This document shows positions 31,530 through 46,209 of a stretch of DNA of 64,000 bases, piece by piece. The notes under the pieces are model-generated. The model had not been told where the DNA came from. It was given only the letters and a program-made list of their open reading frames with translations, and did no database searches. Position numbers and translations under genes: made by a program. Location: assembly GCA_017411405.1 (NCBI GenBank), contig JAFQQE010000014.1:1067-65066 (forward strand). Direction: 5' to 3'. The DNA comes from Bacilli bacterium. Its GTDB lineage: Bacteria; Bacillota_I; Bacilli_A; RF39; UBA660. Within the stretch, counting starts at the first letter, position 1, and each line of letters starts with the position of its first letter.

Positions 31530-31973
31530 ATGAAAGTAATAATACAAAGAGTTAAAGAATCAAGTGTTTCTATAAATAATGAAGTATATAATTCTATAAA
31601 TAATGGATTTATGATACTTGTAGGATTTACTGAAGGAGATACTAGTATAGATATAGATTACATAATAAAGAAAATAGTAAACCTACGAATCTTTGATGAT
31701 GAATCTGGCATAATGAATAAAAGTATAATAGACGTTGGTGGTAGTATACTTTCTATTAGTCAATTTACTCTTTATGCAGATACAAAAAAGGGAAATAGAC
31801 CAAGTTATATTAAAGCATTAAAAGGCGAATTATCTACTAAATTATATGATGAATTTAACGAAAAATTAAACAAAATAGTCCCAACTAAAACAGGAATATT
31901 TGGTGCTGATATGAAAGTTAGTTTAATTAATGATGGCCCTGTAACTATAATAATAGATAGCAAGGATAAATAA
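31530..31973 (+). CDS. dtd: D-aminoacyl-tRNA deacylase
   Basis: [29 protein letters not shown]. Confidence 0.96.
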
Positions 31974-34720: not shown

Positions 34721-34822
34721 ATGGATAAAAAATTAGATATAATTATTGCGATAGTAGTATTTTTAATAGTAGTAATAGTAGGAATAGTAATAGGTTATTT
34801 GCTATATAAAGGAATATTATAA
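34721..34822 (+). CDS. 33-aa single-TM small protein (MDKKLDIIIAIVVFLIVVIVGIVIGYLLYKGIL)
   Basis: AAGGAG RBS at 34708-13; the stop TAA overlaps the ATG of the next gene (TAATG). Not in the ORF track. Confidence 0.68.
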   Translation: MDKKLDIIIAIVVFLIVVIVGIVIGYLLYKGIL

Positions 34823-35778
34823 TGAAAAAGATGAAGTTAAAAAAGAAAGTAAAAAGATTATTTATATTATGTATAATTTTAATTATAGGATTAGTTATTG
34901 GATATAATAAATATAAAGAATATCAATATAAAAAGACTAATGAATATAAATTAACTGTAGTAGGGTATACATTAGATGAATCTAAAATAATAATAGATAA
35001 ATTGAATAATGAAAATGAAAATTATTTTATTAATAATACTAAAATAGAATATATAATAGATTTAATTAATGAAAAATATTTTTTAGAGAAGAATTTACAT
35101 GAATATATAGATTATAAAAATAATAATAAAAGTAAAGAACTTAATGAAGTAGTTGCTTTAGTAAACGTTGGTGCTAATAAAGATTGGTATGATGTAAAAA
35201 AAGTTAAACCAACGGATCTTTCTAAAGGAGATTTAATATTAGTTAATAAGTTTAATTATTTGACTAAAGATTATGTTCCAGAAGAAATAACTTCTATAAG
35301 TTTAAGTTATGCTTATTCTGATAATAAAGTAAGTAAAAGATGTAACGATGCTTATATAGAAATGGCCAAAGCAGCAAAAGAGGATGGTATAAAACTAATG
35401 GCTAATAGTACTTATAGAACTTACGAAAGACAAGAGAAAGTATATAAAGATTATTATTATTCTAAAGGAATAAGCTATGCCGATAAATATGCAGCTAGAG
35501 CGGGATATTCAGAACATCAAACTGGACTTGCAATAGATATATTCACACCAAGTCATCCAACAACTAGTACGTTTGAAAATAGTGATGCATTCGTTTGGTT
35601 AACAAATAATGCGCATAAATTTGGATTTATATTAAGATATCCAAAAGGAAAAGAACATTTAACAGGATATGCATATGAATCATGGCATTATAGATATTTA
35701 GGTAAAGATATAGCAACTAAAGTATATGAATCTGGCTTAACTTATGATGAATATTATGCATACTATTTAGAAAATTAG
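34822..35778 (+). CDS. M15B D-Ala-D-Ala/L,D-carboxypeptidase (VanY/LdcB family), membrane anchored
   Basis: STYRTYERQ, ARAGYSEHQTGLAID (SxHxxGxAxD), ILRYPKGKE..TGYAYESWHYRY (ExxH); N-terminal TM. Confidence 0.9.
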   Translation: MKKMKLKKKVKRLFILCIILIIGLVIGYNKYKEYQYKKTNEYKLTVVGYTLDESKIIIDKLNNENENYFINNTKIEYIIDLINEKYFLEKNLHEYIDYKNNNKSKELNEVVALVNVGANKDWYDVKKVKPTDLSKGDLILVNKFNYLTKDYVPEEITSISLSYAYSDNKVSKRCNDAYIEMAKAAKEDGIKLMANSTYRTYERQEKVYKDYYYSKGISYADKYAARAGYSEHQTGLAIDIFTPSHPTTSTFENSDAFVWLTNNAHKFGFILRYPKGKEHLTGYAYESWHYRYLGKDIATKVYESGLTYDEYYAYYLEN

Positions 35779-35875
35779 ATAAATAAAAATTTAGTTAAAT
35801 AAACTAGATTTTTTTTAACTTTATTGATAATAATATAAATGAATGGTATAATTTTTAGAGTAAAGAGGTAAAAAT

Positions 35876-37015
35876 ATGTATAGAAAAACTTATGTTGAAA
35901 TAGATTGTGAAAAGTTAGAAAATAATATAAAAGAAATAAAAGAAAAATATAACGATTATAAGTACTATATTGGTGTAGTTAAAGCTAATGCTTATGGACA
36001 TGGCATAGAATCTGTTAAATATATGATTAAAGGTGGAATTAATTATTTAGCAGTATCTTCTTTAGAAGAAGCATTAAAGATAAGAAATATAGAAAAAGAA
36101 GTACCAATACTAATTTTAGAACCAATTAGTTATGATGGAATAAAAGTAGCAGTTGAAAACAATCTAACTATTACTATTGATAATAAAGAATATTTTGATA
36201 AACTTTTAAAAGATAAAATAAATATTAAATTTCATATAAAAGTTGATTCAGGAATGAATAGATTTGGTTTCAAAAATAGTGAAGATATAAAATATGTTTT
36301 TTTAAATAGTACAAGTTCATTATATTTAGAAGGAATTTATACTCAATTATTTAGTGGTGTAGGAGAAACTTATAAAAAAGAATTAAATAAATTTAAAACT
36401 TTAACTAACAATATAGATTTAAATAAAATTGAAATAGTTCATTTAGATCGTTCATTAACTTTAGAACAACATGATAAAAATGAATTTGAAACTGGTATAA
36501 GATTGGGAATATTAATGTATGGATTTAATAAGCAAAGATATGCTTTATCTTGGAAGAGAAAACTATTAAATAAAATATTAAATAAGAAAGATAATTTTGT
36601 TCCATCTAAATTAGAATTAAAAACTGTATTAAAATTTTTTACAGAAGTTATTGAAATTAAGGATGTATCAAAAGATGAAATAATTGGATATGGTGGAATG
36701 TATGATAATAAAGAAAATGTTCGTATTGCTATTTTACCATATGGTTTTGCTGATTTCTCATTTATTAATAAAAGTTATGTATATATAAATGGAAAGAAAT
36801 ATAATATAGTTGTTAATTATATGGATATTACGGCAGTTATTATAGATGATGATATAAAAGTTGGAGATAAAGTAGAAATATTTGGTGAAAATATTAGTAT
36901 AAGAGAGGCTAGTAGATTAGCTAATGTTAATGTATATAAACTATTAACAAGTATTACTTATAGAGTACCACGTATTTATAATTATAAAGGAAAAAAGAAA
37001 GAAGTAGAATATTAG
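35876..37015 (+). CDS. PLP-dependent amino-acid racemase, alanine-racemase fold, divergent substrate pocket
   Basis: GVVKANAYGHG (PLP Lys36), HIKVDSGMNRFG, IRLGILMYG, IIGYGG (catalytic Tyr), MD motif and RVPRIY end. Several pocket motifs deviate from Alr. Confidence 0.88.
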   Translation: MYRKTYVEIDCEKLENNIKEIKEKYNDYKYYIGVVKANAYGHGIESVKYMIKGGINYLAVSSLEEALKIRNIEKEVPILILEPISYDGIKVAVENNLTITIDNKEYFDKLLKDKINIKFHIKVDSGMNRFGFKNSEDIKYVFLNSTSSLYLEGIYTQLFSGVGETYKKELNKFKTLTNNIDLNKIEIVHLDRSLTLEQHDKNEFETGIRLGILMYGFNKQRYALSWKRKLLNKILNKKDNFVPSKLELKTVLKFFTEVIEIKDVSKDEIIGYGGMYDNKENVRIAILPYGFADFSFINKSYVYINGKKYNIVVNYMDITAVIIDDDIKVGDKVEIFGENISIREASRLANVNVYKLLTSITYRVPRIYNYKGKKKEVEY

Positions 37016-37023
37016 GTGATTTT

Positions 37024-38256
37024 ATGAAAGATTTTAGAGCATTAATTATTGGTAATGATATAAATGCATATTATTTAGCAAGATGTTATCATGAATTAAC
37101 AGGAAAAAAAGCAGATTTAATAGGCCTTATAGTGCCCGGTGTTAAACCATATGCATATACAAGATATACAAAGATATTAAACATTAAATATGTAGAAAAT
37201 TTATGGGATGAAAAAGTATTTCTGAATGCTTTAAACGAATATTATTTAGAGCATAAAAAAGAAAAAATATTATTAGTAAGTAGTAATGAAACATATGGAG
37301 AATTTATTGCTAAGAATCAAGATAAATTAAAGAAAAAATTCTATTTCAATTATCCTAGTGTAGATTTACAAAATACTCTAGTAAATAAAGAAAAATTTTA
37401 TAAAGCATATGAAAATAGTATAATAGATCTACCAAAAACAATATATTATGATTGTAATAAAGATGATAAAATAGACAAAGATATTATGTTTCCTGTAATC
37501 GTAAAACCAGCGAACGTTATATTATTTAAACATATTACATTTAAGGGTAAGAAAAAAATATATAGACTAAATTCAATGGAAGAACTTAATGAAGTAATAA
37601 ATAATTTTAAAGTTGGGGGATATAATGATACTTTAATTATTCAAGAATATATACCTGGAGACGATTCTAAATTATTTGATGCAGTAGTGTATGCTGATAA
37701 AGATAGTAAAGTAAAATTAGTGTCTTTTGCACAAATAGGATTACAAGAACATGCACCTAGTATGATAGGAAATGCTGCTGTTATAATAAATGGTTATAGT
37801 GAATATCCTGGTGTTACAGAACAAATAAATAAAATAAAAGATTTTATTGAAAGTATAAATTATCAAGGATTTGCTGAGTTCGATATGAAATACGATGAAC
37901 GAGATGGTAAATTTAAAGTAATGGAAATTAATGCAAGACAAGGTAGATGTTCATACTATATAACTCCGTGCGGATTTAATTTAATAGAAATACTTGCACG
38001 TGATTTAATATTTAATGATAGTATTGAATATCAAGTAGTAGAGAAACAACAATTAGAAGTTTTTGTACCAAAATGTATAGTAAAAAAATACATAGTCAAT
38101 GAAAAATATAAAGAAAAAGTTCTGGAACTTTGGAAAAGTAGAGTAAATCCATTAGATTATAAAAAAGATAATGGTATATTAAGAAAATTATTATTACTTA
38201 AAATAAAATTAAATTATATCAAGGCTTATAAAGAAAATATTTGGGATTGGAATTGA
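37024..38256 (+). CDS. asl: ATP-grasp D-aspartate ligase (Asl family)
   Basis: IGNDINAYYLARCYHE, FPVIVKPAN, LIIQEYIPGDD, IGNAAVII, FAEFDMKYDERDG.FKVMEINARQGRCSYY match the enterococcal/lactococcal Asl pattern. Confidence 0.82.
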   Translation: MKDFRALIIGNDINAYYLARCYHELTGKKADLIGLIVPGVKPYAYTRYTKILNIKYVENLWDEKVFLNALNEYYLEHKKEKILLVSSNETYGEFIAKNQDKLKKKFYFNYPSVDLQNTLVNKEKFYKAYENSIIDLPKTIYYDCNKDDKIDKDIMFPVIVKPANVILFKHITFKGKKKIYRLNSMEELNEVINNFKVGGYNDTLIIQEYIPGDDSKLFDAVVYADKDSKVKLVSFAQIGLQEHAPSMIGNAAVIINGYSEYPGVTEQINKIKDFIESINYQGFAEFDMKYDERDGKFKVMEINARQGRCSYYITPCGFNLIEILARDLIFNDSIEYQVVEKQQLEVFVPKCIVKKYIVNEKYKEKVLELWKSRVNPLDYKKDNGILRKLLLLKIKLNYIKAYKENIWDWN

Positions 38257-38260
38257 TAAC

Positions 38261-40096
38261 ATGTGTGGATTTTGCGGATTTGTAAGTAAAGAAAATACTA
38301 AGAATAAAAAAAAGATAATAAAAGAAATGTCAGATAGAATTATACATAGAGGTCCAGATAGTGATGGATACTATGTAGATGAAAATATTGCTATGGGATT
38401 TAGAAGATTATCTATAATCGATTTAGAAGGTGGTGATCAACCACTATATAATGAAGATAAAAATATTGTTGTAATGTTTAATGGAGAAATATATAATTTT
38501 AAAGAATTAAGAGATGTTTTAATTAATTTAGGACACAAATTTAAAACAAATAGTGATACAGAGACAATAGTTCATGGTTATGAAGAATATGGTACAAACA
38601 TATTTAATAAATTAAGAGGAATGTTTGGAATTATTATATATGATAAAAGAAACAATACATTTATTGGAGCAAGAGATTACTTTGGAATAAAACCTGTATA
38701 TTATTATAATAATGATAATTTATTTATGGTAGGATCAGAAATAAAATCATTTCTAAGTCATCCTGATTTTCAAAAAAAATTAAATAAAAAAGTATTAAGT
38801 CTTTATTTATCATATGGAACAAATCATATGGAAGAAACATTTTTTGAAAACACCTATAAATTAAAACCAGGGCATTTCTTTATATATAAAGATGGAAATT
38901 TAGAAATTAAAGAATATCATAAATTAAAATATGAGAAATGTGATGAATCTTTTGATTACTATAAAAACTTAGTTAGAGAAACTATAGAATCTTCTATAGA
39001 ATATCATCAAATAAGTGATGTTGAAGTAGGAAGTTACTTAAGTGGTGGAGTAGATTCATCATATGTAGTAAGTAAAGTTAAGCCAGATAAAACATTTACT
39101 GTTGGATTTGAAGGTAAAGGATTCTCTGAAATAGAATATGCTAAAGATCTGTCAAAACACTTTAAAATAAAACATTATTCAAAAGTAATTAGCGGCGATG
39201 AATTTTTTGAAATATTGCCTACAGTTCAATATCACTCAGATGAACCTAGCGCGAATGTTTCTACAGTTCCTCTGTATTTCTTGAGTAAATTAGCTCGCAG
39301 CAAAGTTAAAGTGGTTTTATCCGGAGAAGGTGCAGATGAAATGTTTGGAGGATACAATGAATATAATGATTCTAAATATGAAAAATTATATTTATCATTG
39401 CCTCATTTTATTAGAGCGACAGTAGCTGGCATTATAAAATATTTACCATACTTTAAAGGTAAAAATACTTTAATTAAATATGGCAAAAATTTAGATAAAA
39501 GATATTACAATAAAACAGAAATGTTTTTACCTAACGAAGTTAATGATGTATTAAATAGTAAATATCAAACTAATTTAAGTCCATTTGATTTATGCAAACC
39601 TTATCATGATGAAGTTAAAAAATCTGATGATGTATTAAGAAAAATGTATATAGATTTAAATTTCTGGTTACCAAACGATATACTTTTAAAAGCAGATAAA
39701 ATGTCTATGGCAAACAGTGTAGAATTGCGTGTACCATTCTTAGATAAAGAAGTATGGAATCTATCAAAAAAAATTCCAACAAAATATTTTGTAAAAGACG
39801 GAGAAACTAAACATATTTTTAGATGTATTGCTAAAGAAACTATTCCTGAAAGTTGGTCAAAAAGAAAGAAGTTAGGTTTCCCTGTTCCATTTGGTAATTG
39901 GATTAAAGAAGAAAAATATTATAATAAAGTAAAAGAAATATTCAATGAGGATTTTACAAAAGAGTTCTTTAAAATTGACGTAATAAATAAAATGCTAGAT
40001 GATCATTATAATGGAATCCTTGGTAATGGTAAAAAAATCTATACCATATATAGTTTCTTAATATGGTATAAAAGATTCTTTATAGAAGAAAATTAA
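38261..40096 (+). CDS. asnB: Glutamine-hydrolysing asparagine synthetase (AsnB/AsnH-type amidotransferase)
   Basis: N-terminal MCG, HRGPD, GFRRLSIID, NGEIYN, LSGGVDSS, LSGEGADEMFGGY, ELRVPFLD. Confidence 0.93.
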   Translation: MCGFCGFVSKENTKNKKKIIKEMSDRIIHRGPDSDGYYVDENIAMGFRRLSIIDLEGGDQPLYNEDKNIVVMFNGEIYNFKELRDVLINLGHKFKTNSDTETIVHGYEEYGTNIFNKLRGMFGIIIYDKRNNTFIGARDYFGIKPVYYYNNDNLFMVGSEIKSFLSHPDFQKKLNKKVLSLYLSYGTNHMEETFFENTYKLKPGHFFIYKDGNLEIKEYHKLKYEKCDESFDYYKNLVRETIESSIEYHQISDVEVGSYLSGGVDSSYVVSKVKPDKTFTVGFEGKGFSEIEYAKDLSKHFKIKHYSKVISGDEFFEILPTVQYHSDEPSANVSTVPLYFLSKLARSKVKVVLSGEGADEMFGGYNEYNDSKYEKLYLSLPHFIRATVAGIIKYLPYFKGKNTLIKYGKNLDKRYYNKTEMFLPNEVNDVLNSKYQTNLSPFDLCKPYHDEVKKSDDVLRKMYIDLNFWLPNDILLKADKMSMANSVELRVPFLDKEVWNLSKKIPTKYFVKDGETKHIFRCIAKETIPESWSKRKKLGFPVPFGNWIKEEKYYNKVKEIFNEDFTKEFFKIDVINKMLDDHYNGILGNGKKIYTIYSFLIWYKRFFIEEN

Positions 40097-40152: not shown

Positions 40153-40842
40153 ATGAAAGTAAAATATTTTTATAAAGATGGTAAAATAGAAGTAATAGAT
40201 GATAATGACTTAGATAAAAATTTAATTTATGATTATCAAGATAATATACATGAAATATTTGAATTAGAAAATATAAACGAATATTTAGAAAAAGAAAAAA
40301 TACTTCAAATAAAAGTAATTAAAGATATTAATAAAAAAATAAATTCAAATAACGAAGTTATTAAAATTTGTAAAATTATATGGATATCTGTTAATATATT
40401 TATGTCAATAACTGCTCTAGTAAATATATTATATTTTATAATTTGGTTTTTATTATCTTCTATAATTTGTTATATTCCTTATATATCAAAAAAAGGAAAC
40501 AATAAAATGTTAAAAAAAGAAATAAACGCTAAAGATAAAAAAATAAAAACCATTAATATAGAATTAAAAAAGAATAACAATATATTAAAAAAATTATATG
40601 AAGATAAAAAAATTACTCAAGATAAATTAAATCATATAAAAAAGAAATTTAATTATATTTTTATAAGAGAAGAATTAGAAAAATTAAAAAAATATTTAAT
40701 GTTAGTAAATGATATAGGATATAATGAAAAAGAATATAGAAAATACTATAATAAAGATATATTAGAAGAAAAACTAAAAGAAGAATATAATAGCTACGAA
40801 ATAAAATTAATTAATAAATATTTTGAAGATAATAAACAATAA
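40153..40842 (+). CDS. Hypothetical protein with two central TM helices and coiled coils
   Basis: GGAG RBS and its own TG-n-TATAAT promoter; hydrophobic segment at about aa 74-115. Confidence 0.65.
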   Translation: MKVKYFYKDGKIEVIDDNDLDKNLIYDYQDNIHEIFELENINEYLEKEKILQIKVIKDINKKINSNNEVIKICKIIWISVNIFMSITALVNILYFIIWFLLSSIICYIPYISKKGNNKMLKKEINAKDKKIKTINIELKKNNNILKKLYEDKKITQDKLNHIKKKFNYIFIREELEKLKKYLMLVNDIGYNEKEYRKYYNKDILEEKLKEEYNSYEIKLINKYFEDNKQ

Positions 40843-40886: not shown

Positions 40887-42527
40887 TTAATCAGAAACTT
40901 TAATATGTAATTTTGTTTTAAATTTATTAATCATAGATTTACCAAATATATCTTCTATTACATTTAATTTATAAGTTATAAATATATAAATTATACCTCC
41001 AATAACAGAATTAATTATAATTGTTATTATAGCGCCTAATTTACTATATATATCAAAATTTAAGAAATTGTTAAGAATTAATAAACTTATAACCATAACT
41101 AATATAGCAAACATAGATTTATAGAATATATTAATAGTATTTTTAAATTTAAGATCTTTACTTTCTTTCTTTAAGAAATGAATATTTAATGAAATACTTA
41201 ATATATATCCTAAGAAACTTGCAAATATACTACCTAAGAAACTTTCTATACCTATATATTTACATAAATACATTAAAGGAACATCTAATAAACCATTAGC
41301 TAAAAATCCTGCTATAACTGCAATATATACAGCTTTAAATTTATTCATAGATTGTAACATAGTAGAAGTAGATAAGTTTATATTAACTAATAAAGCAGTA
41401 AAGATATTAAATTGTAATATCAAACCACCATATTGATTTGTGTTATAAAATATAGTCCATATAGGAGTAGATAAAATACATATTCCAACAGTTAATGGTA
41501 AAGATGCAAAGACTATAATTTGTAACGCTTTATTAATTTTTAAATTAACATTTTTAAAATCATTTTCTACATAACTAGAAACTATATTAGGTATTAATGA
41601 CATTGTCATACCTAATACAATTGAGTTTACAATCATACTTATTTTTGGACACCAAGTAGAAATAGAAGAAGTAATGAATTCAACATCTGTTGCACTATAA
41701 CCTAAATTTTGTATAGTTCTTGAAACAAGAATCATATCTGTTGAAGAATATATATTTGTTATTAAATTTATTATTATAATAGGTATTGAATAATAGATTA
41801 TTTTCTTTATAATTTCTTTATTAGTTATTTTATCTTTTTCATATTCTTTATCTAGATTTAATTTATTTTTGTTTTTTCTTATTTTAATTAATAAATAGAT
41901 ATCAGCAGCAACCGCACCAAAGAATGCTCCTAATAAAGATATTCCAACAGCTAAAGTTAAACTTTGATTTAGTAGTTTATAAACTGTAAATGAACCAATT
42001 AATATAACTGCAATTCTAACTATTTGTTCTAATAATTGACTGACACTTGAAGGTGTCATAAATTTATGACCTTGTAAATATCCTTTAGTTACACTTAAGA
42101 ATGGAACAACTAAGATTGATGTTGCAACACACCTTATAACAAAAGTAACATCACTTATTGTATTTCCACCAGTCATATCTCCTAAAATTAAATGTGCAAA
42201 TGAACGAGCAAATATAAATAAGGCTAAGAACGATACAATAGATAAAATAGTTATTATTTTTTTTGACAATTTGTATGCTCTTGTTTTTGCTTCTATATAA
42301 CCTAATGTATCATATTCGCTAATAATTTTACTTATAGCATTAGGAATACCTGCAGATGATATACTTAAAAATATCAAATAAATATTATAAGCATAACTGT
42401 ATAAAGCGGCTCCTTGTGATCCTACTATAGAATAAAATGGAACAACATAAACCATGCCTAGTATTTTTATTAATACTATAAAAAAGGTTGCAATTAAAGT
42501 ACCTTCTATAAAACTATTTTTTTTCAT
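40887..42527 (-). CDS. MOP-superfamily flippase (YtgP/SpoVB/MurJ-like)
   Basis: SFIEGTLIAT..KILGMVYVVPF, YSYAYNIY...SAGIPNAISK, KGYLQGH, SQLLEQIVRI; about 14 TM helices. Confidence 0.86.
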   Translation of the reverse strand: MKKNSFIEGTLIATFFIVLIKILGMVYVVPFYSIVGSQGAALYSYAYNIYLIFLSISSAGIPNAISKIISEYDTLGYIEAKTRAYKLSKKIITILSIVSFLALFIFARSFAHLILGDMTGGNTISDVTFVIRCVATSILVVPFLSVTKGYLQGHKFMTPSSVSQLLEQIVRIAVILIGSFTVYKLLNQSLTLAVGISLLGAFFGAVAADIYLLIKIRKNKNKLNLDKEYEKDKITNKEIIKKIIYYSIPIIIINLITNIYSSTDMILVSRTIQNLGYSATDVEFITSSISTWCPKISMIVNSIVLGMTMSLIPNIVSSYVENDFKNVNLKINKALQIIVFASLPLTVGICILSTPIWTIFYNTNQYGGLILQFNIFTALLVNINLSTSTMLQSMNKFKAVYIAVIAGFLANGLLDVPLMYLCKYIGIESFLGSIFASFLGYILSISLNIHFLKKESKDLKFKNTINIFYKSMFAILVMVISLLILNNFLNFDIYSKLGAIITIIINSVIGGIIYIFITYKLNVIEDIFGKSMINKFKTKLHIKVSD

Positions 42528-42654
42528 AATAACCTCCAGTTACAAAAAAATTATATAATAAATATAAATATTTTGCATTATTTTAAATAAATTTATACAT
42601 TCACTTAACAATTTTAATATTATTTTGTATAATAAGAAATATGGGAGGATAATT

Positions 42655-43212
42655 ATGGAAAAAACAATGTTAGAAAAAATATTTAAGATGAATAGATTAA
42701 TTATGATTCTTCTTATAGCTATACTTATAGTATTAACTCTTGGAGTATCAAAAATGTATACAACAGATGAAAAAGAAGTAACTAATACAAATACTAACTC
42801 AGAATATAATACTAATTATGATGTTTCTTCATTTAAAGAAATTACAGCAGATGAATTAAAGAAAACAGTTAAAAAAGGCACTCATGTACTTTATATTGGT
42901 AGAGAAACATGTGGATGGTGTGCTGCTTTCTTACCAGCATTATGGGAAGCTGAAGAAGAATACAAATATCAAACTTTATATATTGATATTGCTAAAATAA
43001 TTGATTTTGAAAAAAATGTTATTTCAGATGAAGAAGCTTATAATACTATGATTGGTTTAACTGGCGAAGGCTATGAAACTTATGTAGAAGAAAATTTCGG
43101 GGCTACACCAATGGTTTTAGTATTTAAAGATGGAAAAATAATCGCTGCTACTACTGGATATACAGAGTATAGTACATTTAAAACATTCCTAAATGATGCA
43201 GGAATTAAATAA
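42655..43212 (+). CDS. Membrane-anchored thioredoxin-fold protein (CGWC)
   Basis: N-terminal TM; YIGRETCGWC, cis-Pro motif GATPMVLVFKDG; GGGAGG RBS before ATG 42655. Confidence 0.8.
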   Translation: MEKTMLEKIFKMNRLIMILLIAILIVLTLGVSKMYTTDEKEVTNTNTNSEYNTNYDVSSFKEITADELKKTVKKGTHVLYIGRETCGWCAAFLPALWEAEEEYKYQTLYIDIAKIIDFEKNVISDEEAYNTMIGLTGEGYETYVEENFGATPMVLVFKDGKIIAATTGYTEYSTFKTFLNDAGIK

Positions 43213-43679: not shown

Positions 43680-43788
43680 ATTTATCTTCCTTTGTTCATT
43701 TTAATATAATTTAATTTGTGTAATATAATTAATAGTGTTATACTTAATTCAAGATTTTATTTTAATAAAAAAAATGGGAGATGACAAT

Positions 43789-46209
43789 ATGTTAGAATTA
43801 AAAAATATAAAAAAAGTATATAAGACAGGCAATTTTATACAAAATGCATTAGATGATATAAGTATTAATTTTAGAGCAAATGAATTTGTATCTATATTAG
43901 GACCAAGTGGAAGTGGTAAAACAACACTATTAAATATTATAGGTGGATTAGATCAATATACCGAAGGAGATTTAAAAATATGTGATGTAAGTACAAAAAA
44001 ATATAAAGACAAAGATTGGGATACTTATAGAAATCATAAAGTAGGATTTATTTTTCAAAGTTATAATTTAATTAATCATCAAACAATTTTATCTAATGTT
44101 GAACTTGCATTAACTTTAAGTGGAGTAAAGAAAAGTGTAAGAAGAAAAAAAGCATTAGAAGCCTTAGATAAAGTAGGCTTAAAAGAACATATAAATAAAA
44201 AACCAAATCAACTATCAGGTGGACAAATGCAAAGAGTTGCAATTGCTAGAGCTTTAGTAAATGATCCTAAAATAATTTTAGCTGATGAACCTACAGGTGC
44301 ATTAGATACAAAAACTAGCGAGCAAATCATGACGTTATTAAAAGAAATATCACATGATAAACTAGTGATTATGGTAACTCATAATCCAGAACTTGCAAGT
44401 AGTTATTCAACAAGAATAGTTAGTGTTAAAGATGGTAAAATCTTAAATGATACAGACCCTTATGATGGGAATGATAATAATGATAATAATTCTAAAGAAA
44501 AAAAGACAAGTATGTCATTTTTGACAGCGCTAAGTTTATCATTTAATAATTTATTAACTAAAAAAGGTAGAACAATTTTAACAGCATTTGCTGGTTCAAT
44601 TGGAATAATAGGAATATCATTAATTTTATCTTTATCAAACGGAGTACAAAATTATATAGATAAAGTTCAAGCAGATACTCTTACAAGCTATCCTCTAACA
44701 ATTGAAAAAGAGAGCGTTGATTTTGGAAGTATGATTAGTATAATGGCAGAAAACAATAAAAATAAAGAACACGATAAAGAAGCTATATATTCAAATGATA
44801 TAATGAATGATATTATAAGTACTATGAGTAGTGAAATTAGAACAAATAATTTAAAAGATTTTAAAAAATTCATAAATGAAAAAAAAGATATAAAAAAGTA
44901 TTCTAACGATATTAAATATTCATATGACTTAGACTTACAAATATATAGTAAAGATACAAGCAATGGGATCTTAAAATTAAATCCTAGTAATATTATGAAT
45001 ATATTAGGTATGGGCATAGAAAATAATAATATGGCTATGAATGCTGATATATTTAAAGAATTAACAAATAATGAAACTTTATTAAAAAGTCAATATGATA
45101 TATTAAGTGGGCGATTACCAAAAGAGTATAATGAAGTTATGTTAATTGTTGATGAAAATAATGAAATAAGTGATTATGCTTTATATAGTTTGGGTATAAA
45201 AGAACAAAAAGAATTAATAGATATGATGCAATCTATTAGTAAAGGAGAAAAGATTGAATCGCATGAACAAGTAAAATATAGTTATAAAGACTTATTAAAT
45301 ACAGAATTCAAAGTTGTTTTAAATAGTGATATTTATAAAAAAGAAAATGATAAATGGATAGATTATAGTAATGATATAAATTATATGAAAAAAGTAATCG
45401 AAGAATCACTAAGTTTAAAAATAGTTGGTATCATGAAACCAAGCGATTCATCTACTGTTGAAACAAGTGGTGGCATAGGTTATAAAAGTGAATTAACAGA
45501 ATATGTTATTAATGAAATAAATAATAGTAAAATAGTTAAAGAACAAAAAGTAAATAAAAATATAAATGTGTTTACTGGTAGTGAATTTGCTATAGGAGAA
45601 TCATTAGAAAATAATTATAAATCAATGGGAGTGGTTGATTTAGAAGATCCTAAAAGTATAAATATATATCCTAAAGATTTTGAATCAAAAGATATAATAG
45701 AAAATATTATAAGTGAATATAATGATTCTAAAAATGATGAAGATAAAATAGAATATACAGATTATGTAGGAATTCTAATGAGCAGTGTTACTACAATAGT
45801 AAATATTATTAGCTATGTACTTATTGCATTTGTAAGTATTTCATTGATAGTATCGAGTATAATGATTGGAATAATCACTTACATTTCTGTATTAGAAAGA
45901 ACAAAAGAAATTGGAATATTAAGAGCAATTGGGGCTAGTAAAAAAGACATTAAACGAGTATTTAATGCAGAAACATTTATAGTTGGTTTAATATCAGGTT
46001 TAATAGGTGTTATAATTACAACTTTATTAAATATACCTATTAACAAAATAATTTATAATTTATCAGGAGTTAACGTTGGTGTAAAACTTCCTATAATTGC
46101 GGCAATTATATTAGTTTTAATCAGTTTGACTTTAACAATAATATCTGGTTTAATACCATCAAGATTTGCTGCAAAAAAAGACCCAGTAATAGCATTAAGA
46201 ACTGAATAA
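43789..46209 (+). CDS. MacB-like ABC ATPase-permease fusion (FtsX domain)
   Basis: GPSGSGKTT, LSGGQMQRVAIAR, LADEPTGALD, VTH; TM1, large extracellular domain, ERTKEIGILRAIGA, DPVIALRTE. Confidence 0.9.
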   Translation: MLELKNIKKVYKTGNFIQNALDDISINFRANEFVSILGPSGSGKTTLLNIIGGLDQYTEGDLKICDVSTKKYKDKDWDTYRNHKVGFIFQSYNLINHQTILSNVELALTLSGVKKSVRRKKALEALDKVGLKEHINKKPNQLSGGQMQRVAIARALVNDPKIILADEPTGALDTKTSEQIMTLLKEISHDKLVIMVTHNPELASSYSTRIVSVKDGKILNDTDPYDGNDNNDNNSKEKKTSMSFLTALSLSFNNLLTKKGRTILTAFAGSIGIIGISLILSLSNGVQNYIDKVQADTLTSYPLTIEKESVDFGSMISIMAENNKNKEHDKEAIYSNDIMNDIISTMSSEIRTNNLKDFKKFINEKKDIKKYSNDIKYSYDLDLQIYSKDTSNGILKLNPSNIMNILGMGIENNNMAMNADIFKELTNNETLLKSQYDILSGRLPKEYNEVMLIVDENNEISDYALYSLGIKEQKELIDMMQSISKGEKIESHEQVKYSYKDLLNTEFKVVLNSDIYKKENDKWIDYSNDINYMKKVIEESLSLKIVGIMKPSDSSTVETSGGIGYKSELTEYVINEINNSKIVKEQKVNKNINVFTGSEFAIGESLENNYKSMGVVDLEDPKSINIYPKDFESKDIIENIISEYNDSKNDEDKIEYTDYVGILMSSVTTIVNIISYVLIAFVSISLIVSSIMIGIITYISVLERTKEIGILRAIGASKKDIKRVFNAETFIVGLISGLIGVIITTLLNIPINKIIYNLSGVNVGVKLPIIAAIILVLISLTLTIISGLIPSRFAAKKDPVIALRTE

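Follow-up and report, generated by a model that had tools for sequence, protein, structure and literature searches.

A conserved cassette of an alanine racemase-fold protein, an Asl-family ligase and AsnB, candidate enzymes of a peptidoglycan side chain in uncultured RF39-like Bacilli and Acutalibacteraceae

The window analyzed here is a 64,000-nucleotide stretch of contig JAFQQE010000014.1 (positions 1,067 to 65,066, forward strand) from a Bacilli bacterium of the RF39 lineage (assembly GCA_017411405.1, here G000; 1.04 Mb, ~22% G+C, 78% complete). It contains three closely spaced genes that encode an alanine racemase (Alr)-fold protein, an ATP-grasp ligase and an AsnB-type enzyme, with 8 bp between the first two and 4 bp between the second and third:

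35876-37015, plus strand: Alr-fold racemase, pyridoxal 5'-phosphate (PLP) fold type III, 379 amino acids, assigned by Pfam and NCBIfam
37024-38256, plus strand: Asl-family ATP-grasp carboxylate-amine ligase, 410 amino acids, member of a clade of Alr-linked ligases, assigned by fold, homology and tree
38261-40096, plus strand: AsnB-type glutamine amidotransferase, 611 amino acids, assigned by GATase_7, Asn_synthase and TIGR01536

In Enterococcus faecium and Lactococcus lactis, the RacD/Asl (Aslfm, AslA)/AsnH pathway builds a D-Asp, then D-isoAsn, bridge on L-Lys of the peptidoglycan stem. An earlier note on this DNA had read the three genes, along with an M15B carboxypeptidase gene upstream, as a complete D-Asx bridge cluster in which the Alr-fold enzyme takes the place of RacD. 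Its four co-oriented genes, the last three of them 8 and 4 bp apart, are confirmed both as open reading frames and in their spacing.

To survey operon conservation, as the earlier note had proposed, we queried 185,579 species genomes with an alignment of 10 ligase sequences and took the 80 closest loci, whose ligases share 45-83% identity with that of the window. An Alr-fold gene lies directly upstream of the ligase gene, often overlapping it, in 75 of the 78 related loci that could be evaluated, and AsnB lies directly downstream in 61 of 74. Both partners are found together in 58 loci, showing that the gene arrangement is not due to chance. RacD was present in none of the 80. The carriers are metagenome-assembled genomes (MAGs) labelled uncultured Bacilli, Tenericutes or Mycoplasmatota, plus Acutalibacteraceae. 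We take the source lineage to be RF39/ML615J-28-like. A literature search for a racemase-ligase-AsnB triad returned no match.

The ligase has no Pfam match above threshold, and a phmmer search of the PDB gave no real match. An AlphaFold (AF2) model built on 40 relatives (pLDDT 92.2) has an ATP-grasp fold, with Foldseek probabilities of 1.0 against biotin carboxylase, PylC, PurK and carbamoyl-phosphate synthetase (CPS). A profile of the ligase family likewise matches CPS, VanA and an L-amino-acid ligase, and the Mg/ATP-binding residues K161, D287, E301, N303 and R305 are invariant or nearly so in the family alignment. By tblastn of a relative of the window ligase against PLSDB (large replicons), we found lactobacillus homologues, which are 30% identical to the window ligase: one from Latilactobacillus curvatus, matching at full length (E 2e-60), and one from L. 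fermentum (E 2e-53). In L. curvatus the ligase gene, annotated 'carboxylate--amine ligase', follows aspS and a gene for a 233-residue 'amino acid racemase', and we used such RacD-adjacent lactobacillus ligases as proxies for the Asl enzymes of E. faecium and L. lactis. Automatic annotation at JGI names three relatives of the window ligase 'D-aspartate ligase'. By homology, the window ligase is a member of the Asl family in the family sense; this and the peptidoglycan gene context described below uphold the earlier call of an Asl-type ligase.

RacD does occur in a comparable position elsewhere. In a genome of the same class (G037), the ligase gene is followed by one for a 222-residue protein of the Asp/Glu-racemase fold (TIGR00035, 146 bits against a cut-off of 93) and then by AsnB, and Subdoligranulum variabile (record OY725879) has the same ligase-RacD-AsnB order. 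These operons share with the window cassette its number of genes and the families of its ligase (36% identity to the G037 enzyme) and its AsnB (44-47% identity to the AsnB of RacD-type cassettes), but their racemase gene comes after the ligase gene, whereas the Alr-fold gene comes before it. In a maximum-likelihood tree of 212 ligases, every Alr-linked ligase falls in one clade with support of 99, including a more distant one at 36% identity, while the three RacD-linked ligases (G037, S. variabile and L. curvatus) fall in other clades; the window ligase is not placed within the clade or clades of ligases linked to RacD. Because homologous RacD operons exist and the Alr-linked ligases form one clade, the exchange of partner between RacD and the Alr-fold protein is a real evolutionary pattern at the gene level, beyond an accident of one genome. 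The earlier proposal of such a swap is sustained by this, and by the absence of racD and of the MurI fold from G000, 16 genomes of the genus and the 80 loci. As a variant, the cassette is distinct from, and sister to, the classical RacD, Asl and (in some cases) AsnH system for D-Asp bridges, and it is widespread in uncultured RF39-like Bacilli and Acutalibacteraceae. Like that system, it combines an ATP-grasp ligase of the same family with an adjacent racemase gene and an AsnB-type amidotransferase; unlike it, it has a PLP-dependent Alr-fold racemase in place of the PLP-independent RacD, a ligase from a separate clade with active-site differences, and all three genes in one operon.

The active-site differences were read from conserved positions. 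The Alr-linked clade has Y129, V165, D219, G239, Q241, E285 and L345 where the RacD-linked ligases have C, S, V, L, E, N and W, respectively. Of these, position 285 precedes the Mg-ligand Asp287 by two residues and aligns with the 'SNVQ' segment of CPS at the carboxyl/phosphate site. Judged from these residues, the net change relative to RacD-linked ligases is toward acidic side chains, the opposite of what a dicarboxylic substrate would predict.

Relatives of the ligase gene sit among genes of peptidoglycan synthesis. One locus reads murF-murE-ligase-asnB-asnB (L047), another alr-ligase-murE2 (L099), and in a third genome (G012) the ligase gene directly follows mraY (TIGR00445, 325 bits); femAB, a Mur ligase, a class A penicillin-binding protein (PBP) or spoIID lie near others. 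The motif DNPR is that of MurE enzymes that add meso-diaminopimelic acid (mDAP). The MurE of the source genome carries it (...TNDNPRCED...) and scores 469 bits against NF001126, the mDAP-ligase equivalog model (cut-off 373), compared with 281 bits against the Lys-ligase model (cut-off 536). DNPR is also found in the MurE of about 20 other cassette-bearing genomes, and an mDAP-type pathway with missing precursor steps has been predicted for RF39 and ML615J-28 (PMC10868615). From the MurE sequences, the third stem residue is predicted to be of the mDAP type and not L-Lys, which contradicts the L-Lys stem of the earlier note and sets the window genome apart from those with the classical Lys-based bridge. 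The MurE of the RacD-type genome G037 has EDPR instead, as does the cassette-linked MurE2 of L099; the NCBIfam MurE models fail to separate the EDPR enzyme of G037 from mDAP enzymes, so that its Lys/mDAP call is one of motif alone. Several related genomes encode two MurE paralogues, one with DNPR and a second with DDPH or EDPR (tandem pairs in G044, G065 and G066; L099:7509-9029), and in L099 the EDPR copy directly follows the racemase-ligase pair. This pairing suggests that alternative residues may be used at the third position.

On balance, then, we favor the reading that the core of the cluster is a three-gene peptidoglycan-precursor module, running from Alr-fold racemase to Asl-family ligase to AsnB, that probably adds a D-amino acid to the stem side chain. 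Its homology, linkage and context are observed, and the chemistry is inferred from them. The racemase would supply a D-amino acid, whose carboxyl the ligase would activate as an acyl phosphate and couple to the third stem residue (predicted mDAP-type) of UDP-MurNAc-pentapeptide, at the free amino group of that residue's side chain. AsnB would then amidate a neighboring free carboxyl, either of the added residue or of mDAP, and a SpoVB/YtgP-like flippase of the MOP superfamily encoded nearby probably exports the lipid-linked product. The earlier interpretation is partly supported: it names the right kind of system and is correct on the racemase swap, while its L-Lys stem is contradicted.

The racemase matches both Pfam domains of alanine racemases (Ala_racemase_N and C) and, at 211 bits, clears the TIGR00492 cut-off of 168. 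Among alanine racemases, those of the cassette make up a single, distinct clade (SH-like support 99). In the residue numbering of PMC2743695, all 76 cassette racemases have the PLP Lys, Tyr270', Arg138 and Arg224, and 71 of the 76 have the inner-layer gate residue Tyr359; the window protein has every one of these residues. In these features and in fold, the cassette enzymes resemble housekeeping Alr/DadX proteins (Bacillus anthracis 2VD8, Geobacillus stearothermophilus 1SFT). They differ from them in the coupling of their gene to an Asl-family ligase gene and in the middle layer of the entryway, where Asp173, Arg295', Arg314' and Ile357 are 'absolutely conserved' among characterized alanine racemases (PMC2743695). 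Across the cassette clade, all four are replaced, by G173 (65/76), K/I295', D/E/N314' (66/76) and N/S/T357 (75/76), whereas canonical Alrs of the same or related genomes retain D, R, R and I. At the same four positions, V/G, I, N and N stand in the window protein, which further carries H168Q and Y289'F. With two arginines lost and an Asp or Glu gained at 314', the cassette entryway is more acidic. Such a conserved remodeling suggests that the role of the racemase has changed or widened.

These sequences also allowed us to reject a Van-type resistance cluster: the ligase is not of the Ddl family (Dala_Dala_lig_C, E 0.056, under threshold), and the racemase retains the gate Tyr in place of the Asn of serine racemase and falls far under the cut-offs of the VanT models.

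No PF01168 protein other than the cassette racemase was found in the source assembly. Most genomes of the genus likewise have no second Alr, nor do most of the small genomes that carry the cassette, one of them a complete 1.54-Mb chromosome (G060). The source genome also encodes a MurF-like ligase and a genuine Ddl (298 bits, cut-off 262). In genomes with no second Alr, production of D-Ala is most likely still a function of the cassette racemase. The earlier claim of a racemase for Asp is not established by these data, since the catalytic and gate residues of alanine racemases are kept and the enzyme is the sole Alr alongside Ddl and MurF. The earlier note had named a racD elsewhere, together with a sole and Ala-specific alr, as a finding that would speak against its reading. 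Half of this pair is seen, a sole Alr that passes the alr equivalog model, and no racD was found.

The MurF-like ligase (522 amino acids; G000 contig C14:138505-140073) is itself unusual, with a very hydrophobic, multi-span N-terminus of about 165 residues replacing the usual N-terminal domain. TIGR01143 matches from residue 169 only (234 bits against a cut-off of 289), and the gene lies directly upstream of ddl. A similar MurF-like ligase is encoded at L047:3032-4606.

The supply of other D-amino acids was examined by profile searches, on which the following absences rest, with 15 congeneric genomes and one complete chromosome backing up the 78%-complete assembly. PF01177, the RacD/MurI fold, has no match in G000, the 16 genus genomes or most small cassette genomes, the complete chromosome among them, and phmmer did not find RacD or MurI in G000. 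A D-amino-acid transaminase (Dat; PF01063) was likewise not detected, either across the genus or in most of the small genomes with the cassette, and on this ground we rejected a route to D-Asp or D-Glu through that enzyme. The genus and most of the small cassette genomes, again including G060, have MurE, MurF and Ddl without any known D-glutamate route. In sister genera of the window's family (G016, G017, G024 and G025), we found 3-7 Mur ligase-family genes and no match to Alr, MurI or Dat. Their gene content implies D-amino-acid scavenging or racemases of a kind not yet recognized, and Alr is evidently not indispensable for D-Ala supply in this family.

A different complement is seen in Acutalibacteraceae loci L046, L048, L053, L055, L056, L060 and L095, where the cassette continues on one strand as racemase-ligase-AsnB-MOP flippase-canonical alr. 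Two Alr-fold genes here bracket one cluster, with the canonical Alr 6 kb from the cassette racemase. The two score 373 and 276 bits, respectively, against TIGR00492. One MurI-sized PF01177 gene lies elsewhere in these genomes, which have no RacD.

The AsnB of the window combines GATase_7 and Asn_synthase domains (TIGR01536, 503 bits), and its N-terminus, MCGF, has the Met-Cys start that gives the N-terminal Cys of the N-terminal nucleophile (Ntn) glutamine amidotransferases. It is single-copy, the only AsnB homologue found in the source assembly. Pairwise identities among AsnB proteins give no clear split between the Alr- and RacD-type cassettes. Two AsnB paralogues occur in cassettes L047, L058, L059, L073 and L078; the second group is 53-54% identical internally and 41-50% identical to the first. 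The pairing hints that two different carboxyl groups may be amidated. AsnB enzymes amidate mDAP in Bacillus subtilis (AsnB), Lactiplantibacillus plantarum (AsnB1) and Clostridioides difficile (AsnB). As in these species, an AsnB-type enzyme is found here in a Firmicute whose stem is predicted to be of the mDAP type; the window AsnB differs in being operon-coupled to a side-chain ligase.

Several observations weigh against a dedicated module of this kind. All members of the Alr-linked ligase clade come from MAGs, and a search for cultured carriers gave MAGs only. Two genomes of the genus (G002 and G006) encode a racemase of the cassette clade but not the ligase. With Ddl and MurF encoded in the genome and no other Alr, the racemase could be an ordinary housekeeping enzyme, and AsnB could have a housekeeping role in asparagine synthesis or amidate mDAP independently of the ligase. 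If the added residue were D-Ala, it would form a side chain for which we know of no natural precedent on mDAP. If it were larger, it would have to pass the retained Tyr359 gate, which in alanine racemases keeps out larger amino acids (PMC4517790).

If the module does add a D-amino acid, two kinds of residue come forward about equally, each quite possible while falling short of an even chance. An acidic residue, D-Asp or D-Glu, is suggested because of the family precedent, the retained coupling to AsnB, the cassettes with two AsnB paralogues and the apparent provision of one racemase per D-amino acid in Acutalibacteraceae; D-Ala or another small neutral residue is suggested because the Ala gate is intact, the enzyme is often the sole Alr and both racemase and ligase have shifted toward acidic residues. 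A residue of some other kind would be the less likely outcome. The complete D-Asx bridge of the earlier note is not borne out, given the retained Tyr gate, the pass of the alr equivalog and the ligase's gain of E285 (N285E) and D219 (V219D), and D-Asx stands as one candidate.

In one specific form of the neutral case, the cassette enzyme is a genuine racemase of alanine, and it is the ligase that has changed its substrate, from D-Asp to D-Ala (or D-Ser), joining the alpha-carboxyl of the new residue to the side-chain amine of mDAP while AsnB amidates the mDAP carboxyl. This scheme, which we regard as a tentative possibility, would account for the conservation of every catalytic and gate residue, the TIGR00492 score and the sole-Alr status in most small cassette genomes. 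It fits the translational coupling or overlap of the genes and the mDAP-type MurE, and acidic gains at active-site segments of the ligase would suit an alpha-ammonium group beside the activated carboxyl. A biochemical analogy exists in PylC of the pyrrolysine pathway (PDB 4FFL/4FFM), an ATP-grasp enzyme among the closest folds that joins the alpha-carboxyl of a D-amino acid to the epsilon-amine of lysine, although it shares only 16% sequence identity with the window ligase and belongs to another pathway, with another acceptor and gene context. Difficult to reconcile with this scheme are the lack of precedent noted above, the retention of a canonical Alr beside the cassette enzyme in Acutalibacteraceae, and the remodeling of a middle layer that is otherwise 'absolutely conserved' (PMC2743695).

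That remodeling, conserved across the clade, would be easier to understand if the Alr-fold enzyme were a PLP-dependent Asp (or Glu) racemase that has replaced RacD, with the ligase adding D-Asp or D-Glu and AsnB amidating it. The product would be a wall bridged by D-Asx or D-Glx, A4-gamma-like on mDAP and not A4-alpha on Lys. The homology of the ligase to Asl and the operons with RacD in the equivalent role agree with such a replacement, as do the AsnB coupling in both cassette types, the paired AsnB paralogues in some of them and the Acutalibacteraceae with MurI, a canonical Alr and a cassette racemase; the sister genera with Mur ligases and no Alr indicate that D-Ala supply needs none. We nevertheless consider it rather unlikely. 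The inner Tyr270'/Tyr359 gate persists in 71 of 76 cassette racemases, the entryway and the ligase (E285, D219) have become more acidic where an acidic substrate would predict the opposite, and the enzyme passes the alr equivalog as the sole Alr of a genome with Ddl. We know of no published fold-type-III racemase that acts on Asp or Glu. It is also doubtful that the cassette racemase is the first fold-type-III enzyme to make a non-alanine D-amino acid (D-Asp or D-Glu) for wall cross-bridging, perhaps as a bifunctional Ala/acidic racemase.

It is improbable that the genes merely share a location, with a housekeeping Alr, an ordinary D-Asp ligase acting on scavenged D-Asp and an AsnH-like AsnB kept in order by inheritance and block transfer. 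Reduced genomes without MurI and Dat must scavenge D-Glu or use a route not yet described (PMC10868615 reports missing precursor steps), and the cassette-clade racemases of G002 and G006 that lack the ligase would fit such loose association. Set against this are the adjacency in 75 of 78 evaluable loci over 45-83% ligase identity, across MAGs of Bacilli/Tenericutes and Acutalibacteraceae and often with overlapping genes, the paired monophyly of the ligase and racemase clades, and the mDAP-type MurE. Very improbable is a non-peptidoglycan target, such as a uronic acid, amidated with an amino acid, in a surface polysaccharide that a MOP/Wzx-like flippase exports: sugar acids are also substrates of ATP-grasp and AsnB-like enzymes and the flippase best matches Polysacc_synt, but the ligase shares homology with the D-Asp ligases of peptidoglycan synthesis, its relatives adjoin murE, murF, mraY, femAB, PBP or spoIID genes, and glycosyltransferases were not found in the cassette.

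The three-gene cassette is flanked in the window by the following features:

34822-35778, plus strand: M15B peptidase (VanY/LdcB-like) with an N-terminal membrane anchor, assigned by Pfam and NCBIfam
35824-35852, plus strand: promoter-like site (TTGATA-17-TATAAT, with TG) within the 97 bp that separate the M15B and racemase genes
40153-40842, plus strand: 229-residue coiled-coil protein with one hydrophobic (transmembrane) segment, an open reading frame with no family match
40887-42527, minus strand: MOP-superfamily flippase, SpoVB/YtgP-like, with a Polysacc_synt match and a weak MurJ match

The M15B protein matches Pfam VanY (141.7 bits), and its top NCBIfam match, LdcB, is under its cut-off. 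A same-strand upstream VanY match is found only in L002 and L003, both contigs of the window's own species; among the 80 related loci, VanY occurs in L110 alone, on the opposite strand. The M15B peptidase, which the earlier note had counted in the cluster, is therefore a neighbor outside the conserved cassette. The promoter-like site is weak evidence, as matches of this kind are scarcer in the AT-rich window than in shuffled sequence, and a promoter and terminator scan of the locus was uninformative. The 229-residue protein has no Pfam or NCBIfam match and was seen solely in contigs of the window's own species.

The flippase scores 88 bits against Polysacc_synt, its best Pfam match, 29.2 bits against MurJ and 140 bits against TIGR02900 (under cut-off). 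Its gene does lie where the earlier note had placed it, 790 bp downstream of asnB, but it is convergent with the cassette, with the coiled-coil reading frame in between, and its likeness to MurJ is weak. A flippase homologue follows asnB in 13 of the 80 related loci, on the same strand in those of Acutalibacteraceae. Beside the flippase gene are one for a PedC/BrcD-like thioredoxin-fold protein (42625-43212; bacteriocin-maturation disulfide isomerase family, under cut-off) and, after it, an ABC-FtsX fusion gene (43735-46209). About 3 kb upstream of the cluster, a D-aminoacyl-tRNA deacylase gene (Tyr_Deacylase; 31530-31973) follows a RelA/SpoT gene and is probably ordinary housekeeping.

The clade of Alr-linked ligases is large, and its members all come from uncultured bacteria of the gut and rumen, the RF39-like Bacilli and Acutalibacteraceae. 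The product of the cassette would define the wall chemistry of its carriers, and hence the muropeptides that host receptors could encounter. We regard the cassette as a concrete candidate for a new pathway of peptidoglycan side-chain synthesis and for an alanine-racemase-fold enzyme with an altered role; as its carriers include bacteria without a known D-glutamate route, the racemase could bear on both questions at once. If it were indeed a bifunctional Ala/acidic enzyme, it would also explain the source of D-Glu in RF39-like bacteria that lack MurI and Dat, and the cassette would build an amidated D-Asx or D-Glx side chain on mDAP, a wall chemotype not described in Firmicutes. If it is a plain alanine racemase, the ligase would still represent an uncharacterized branch of the Asl family in organisms of the mDAP type.

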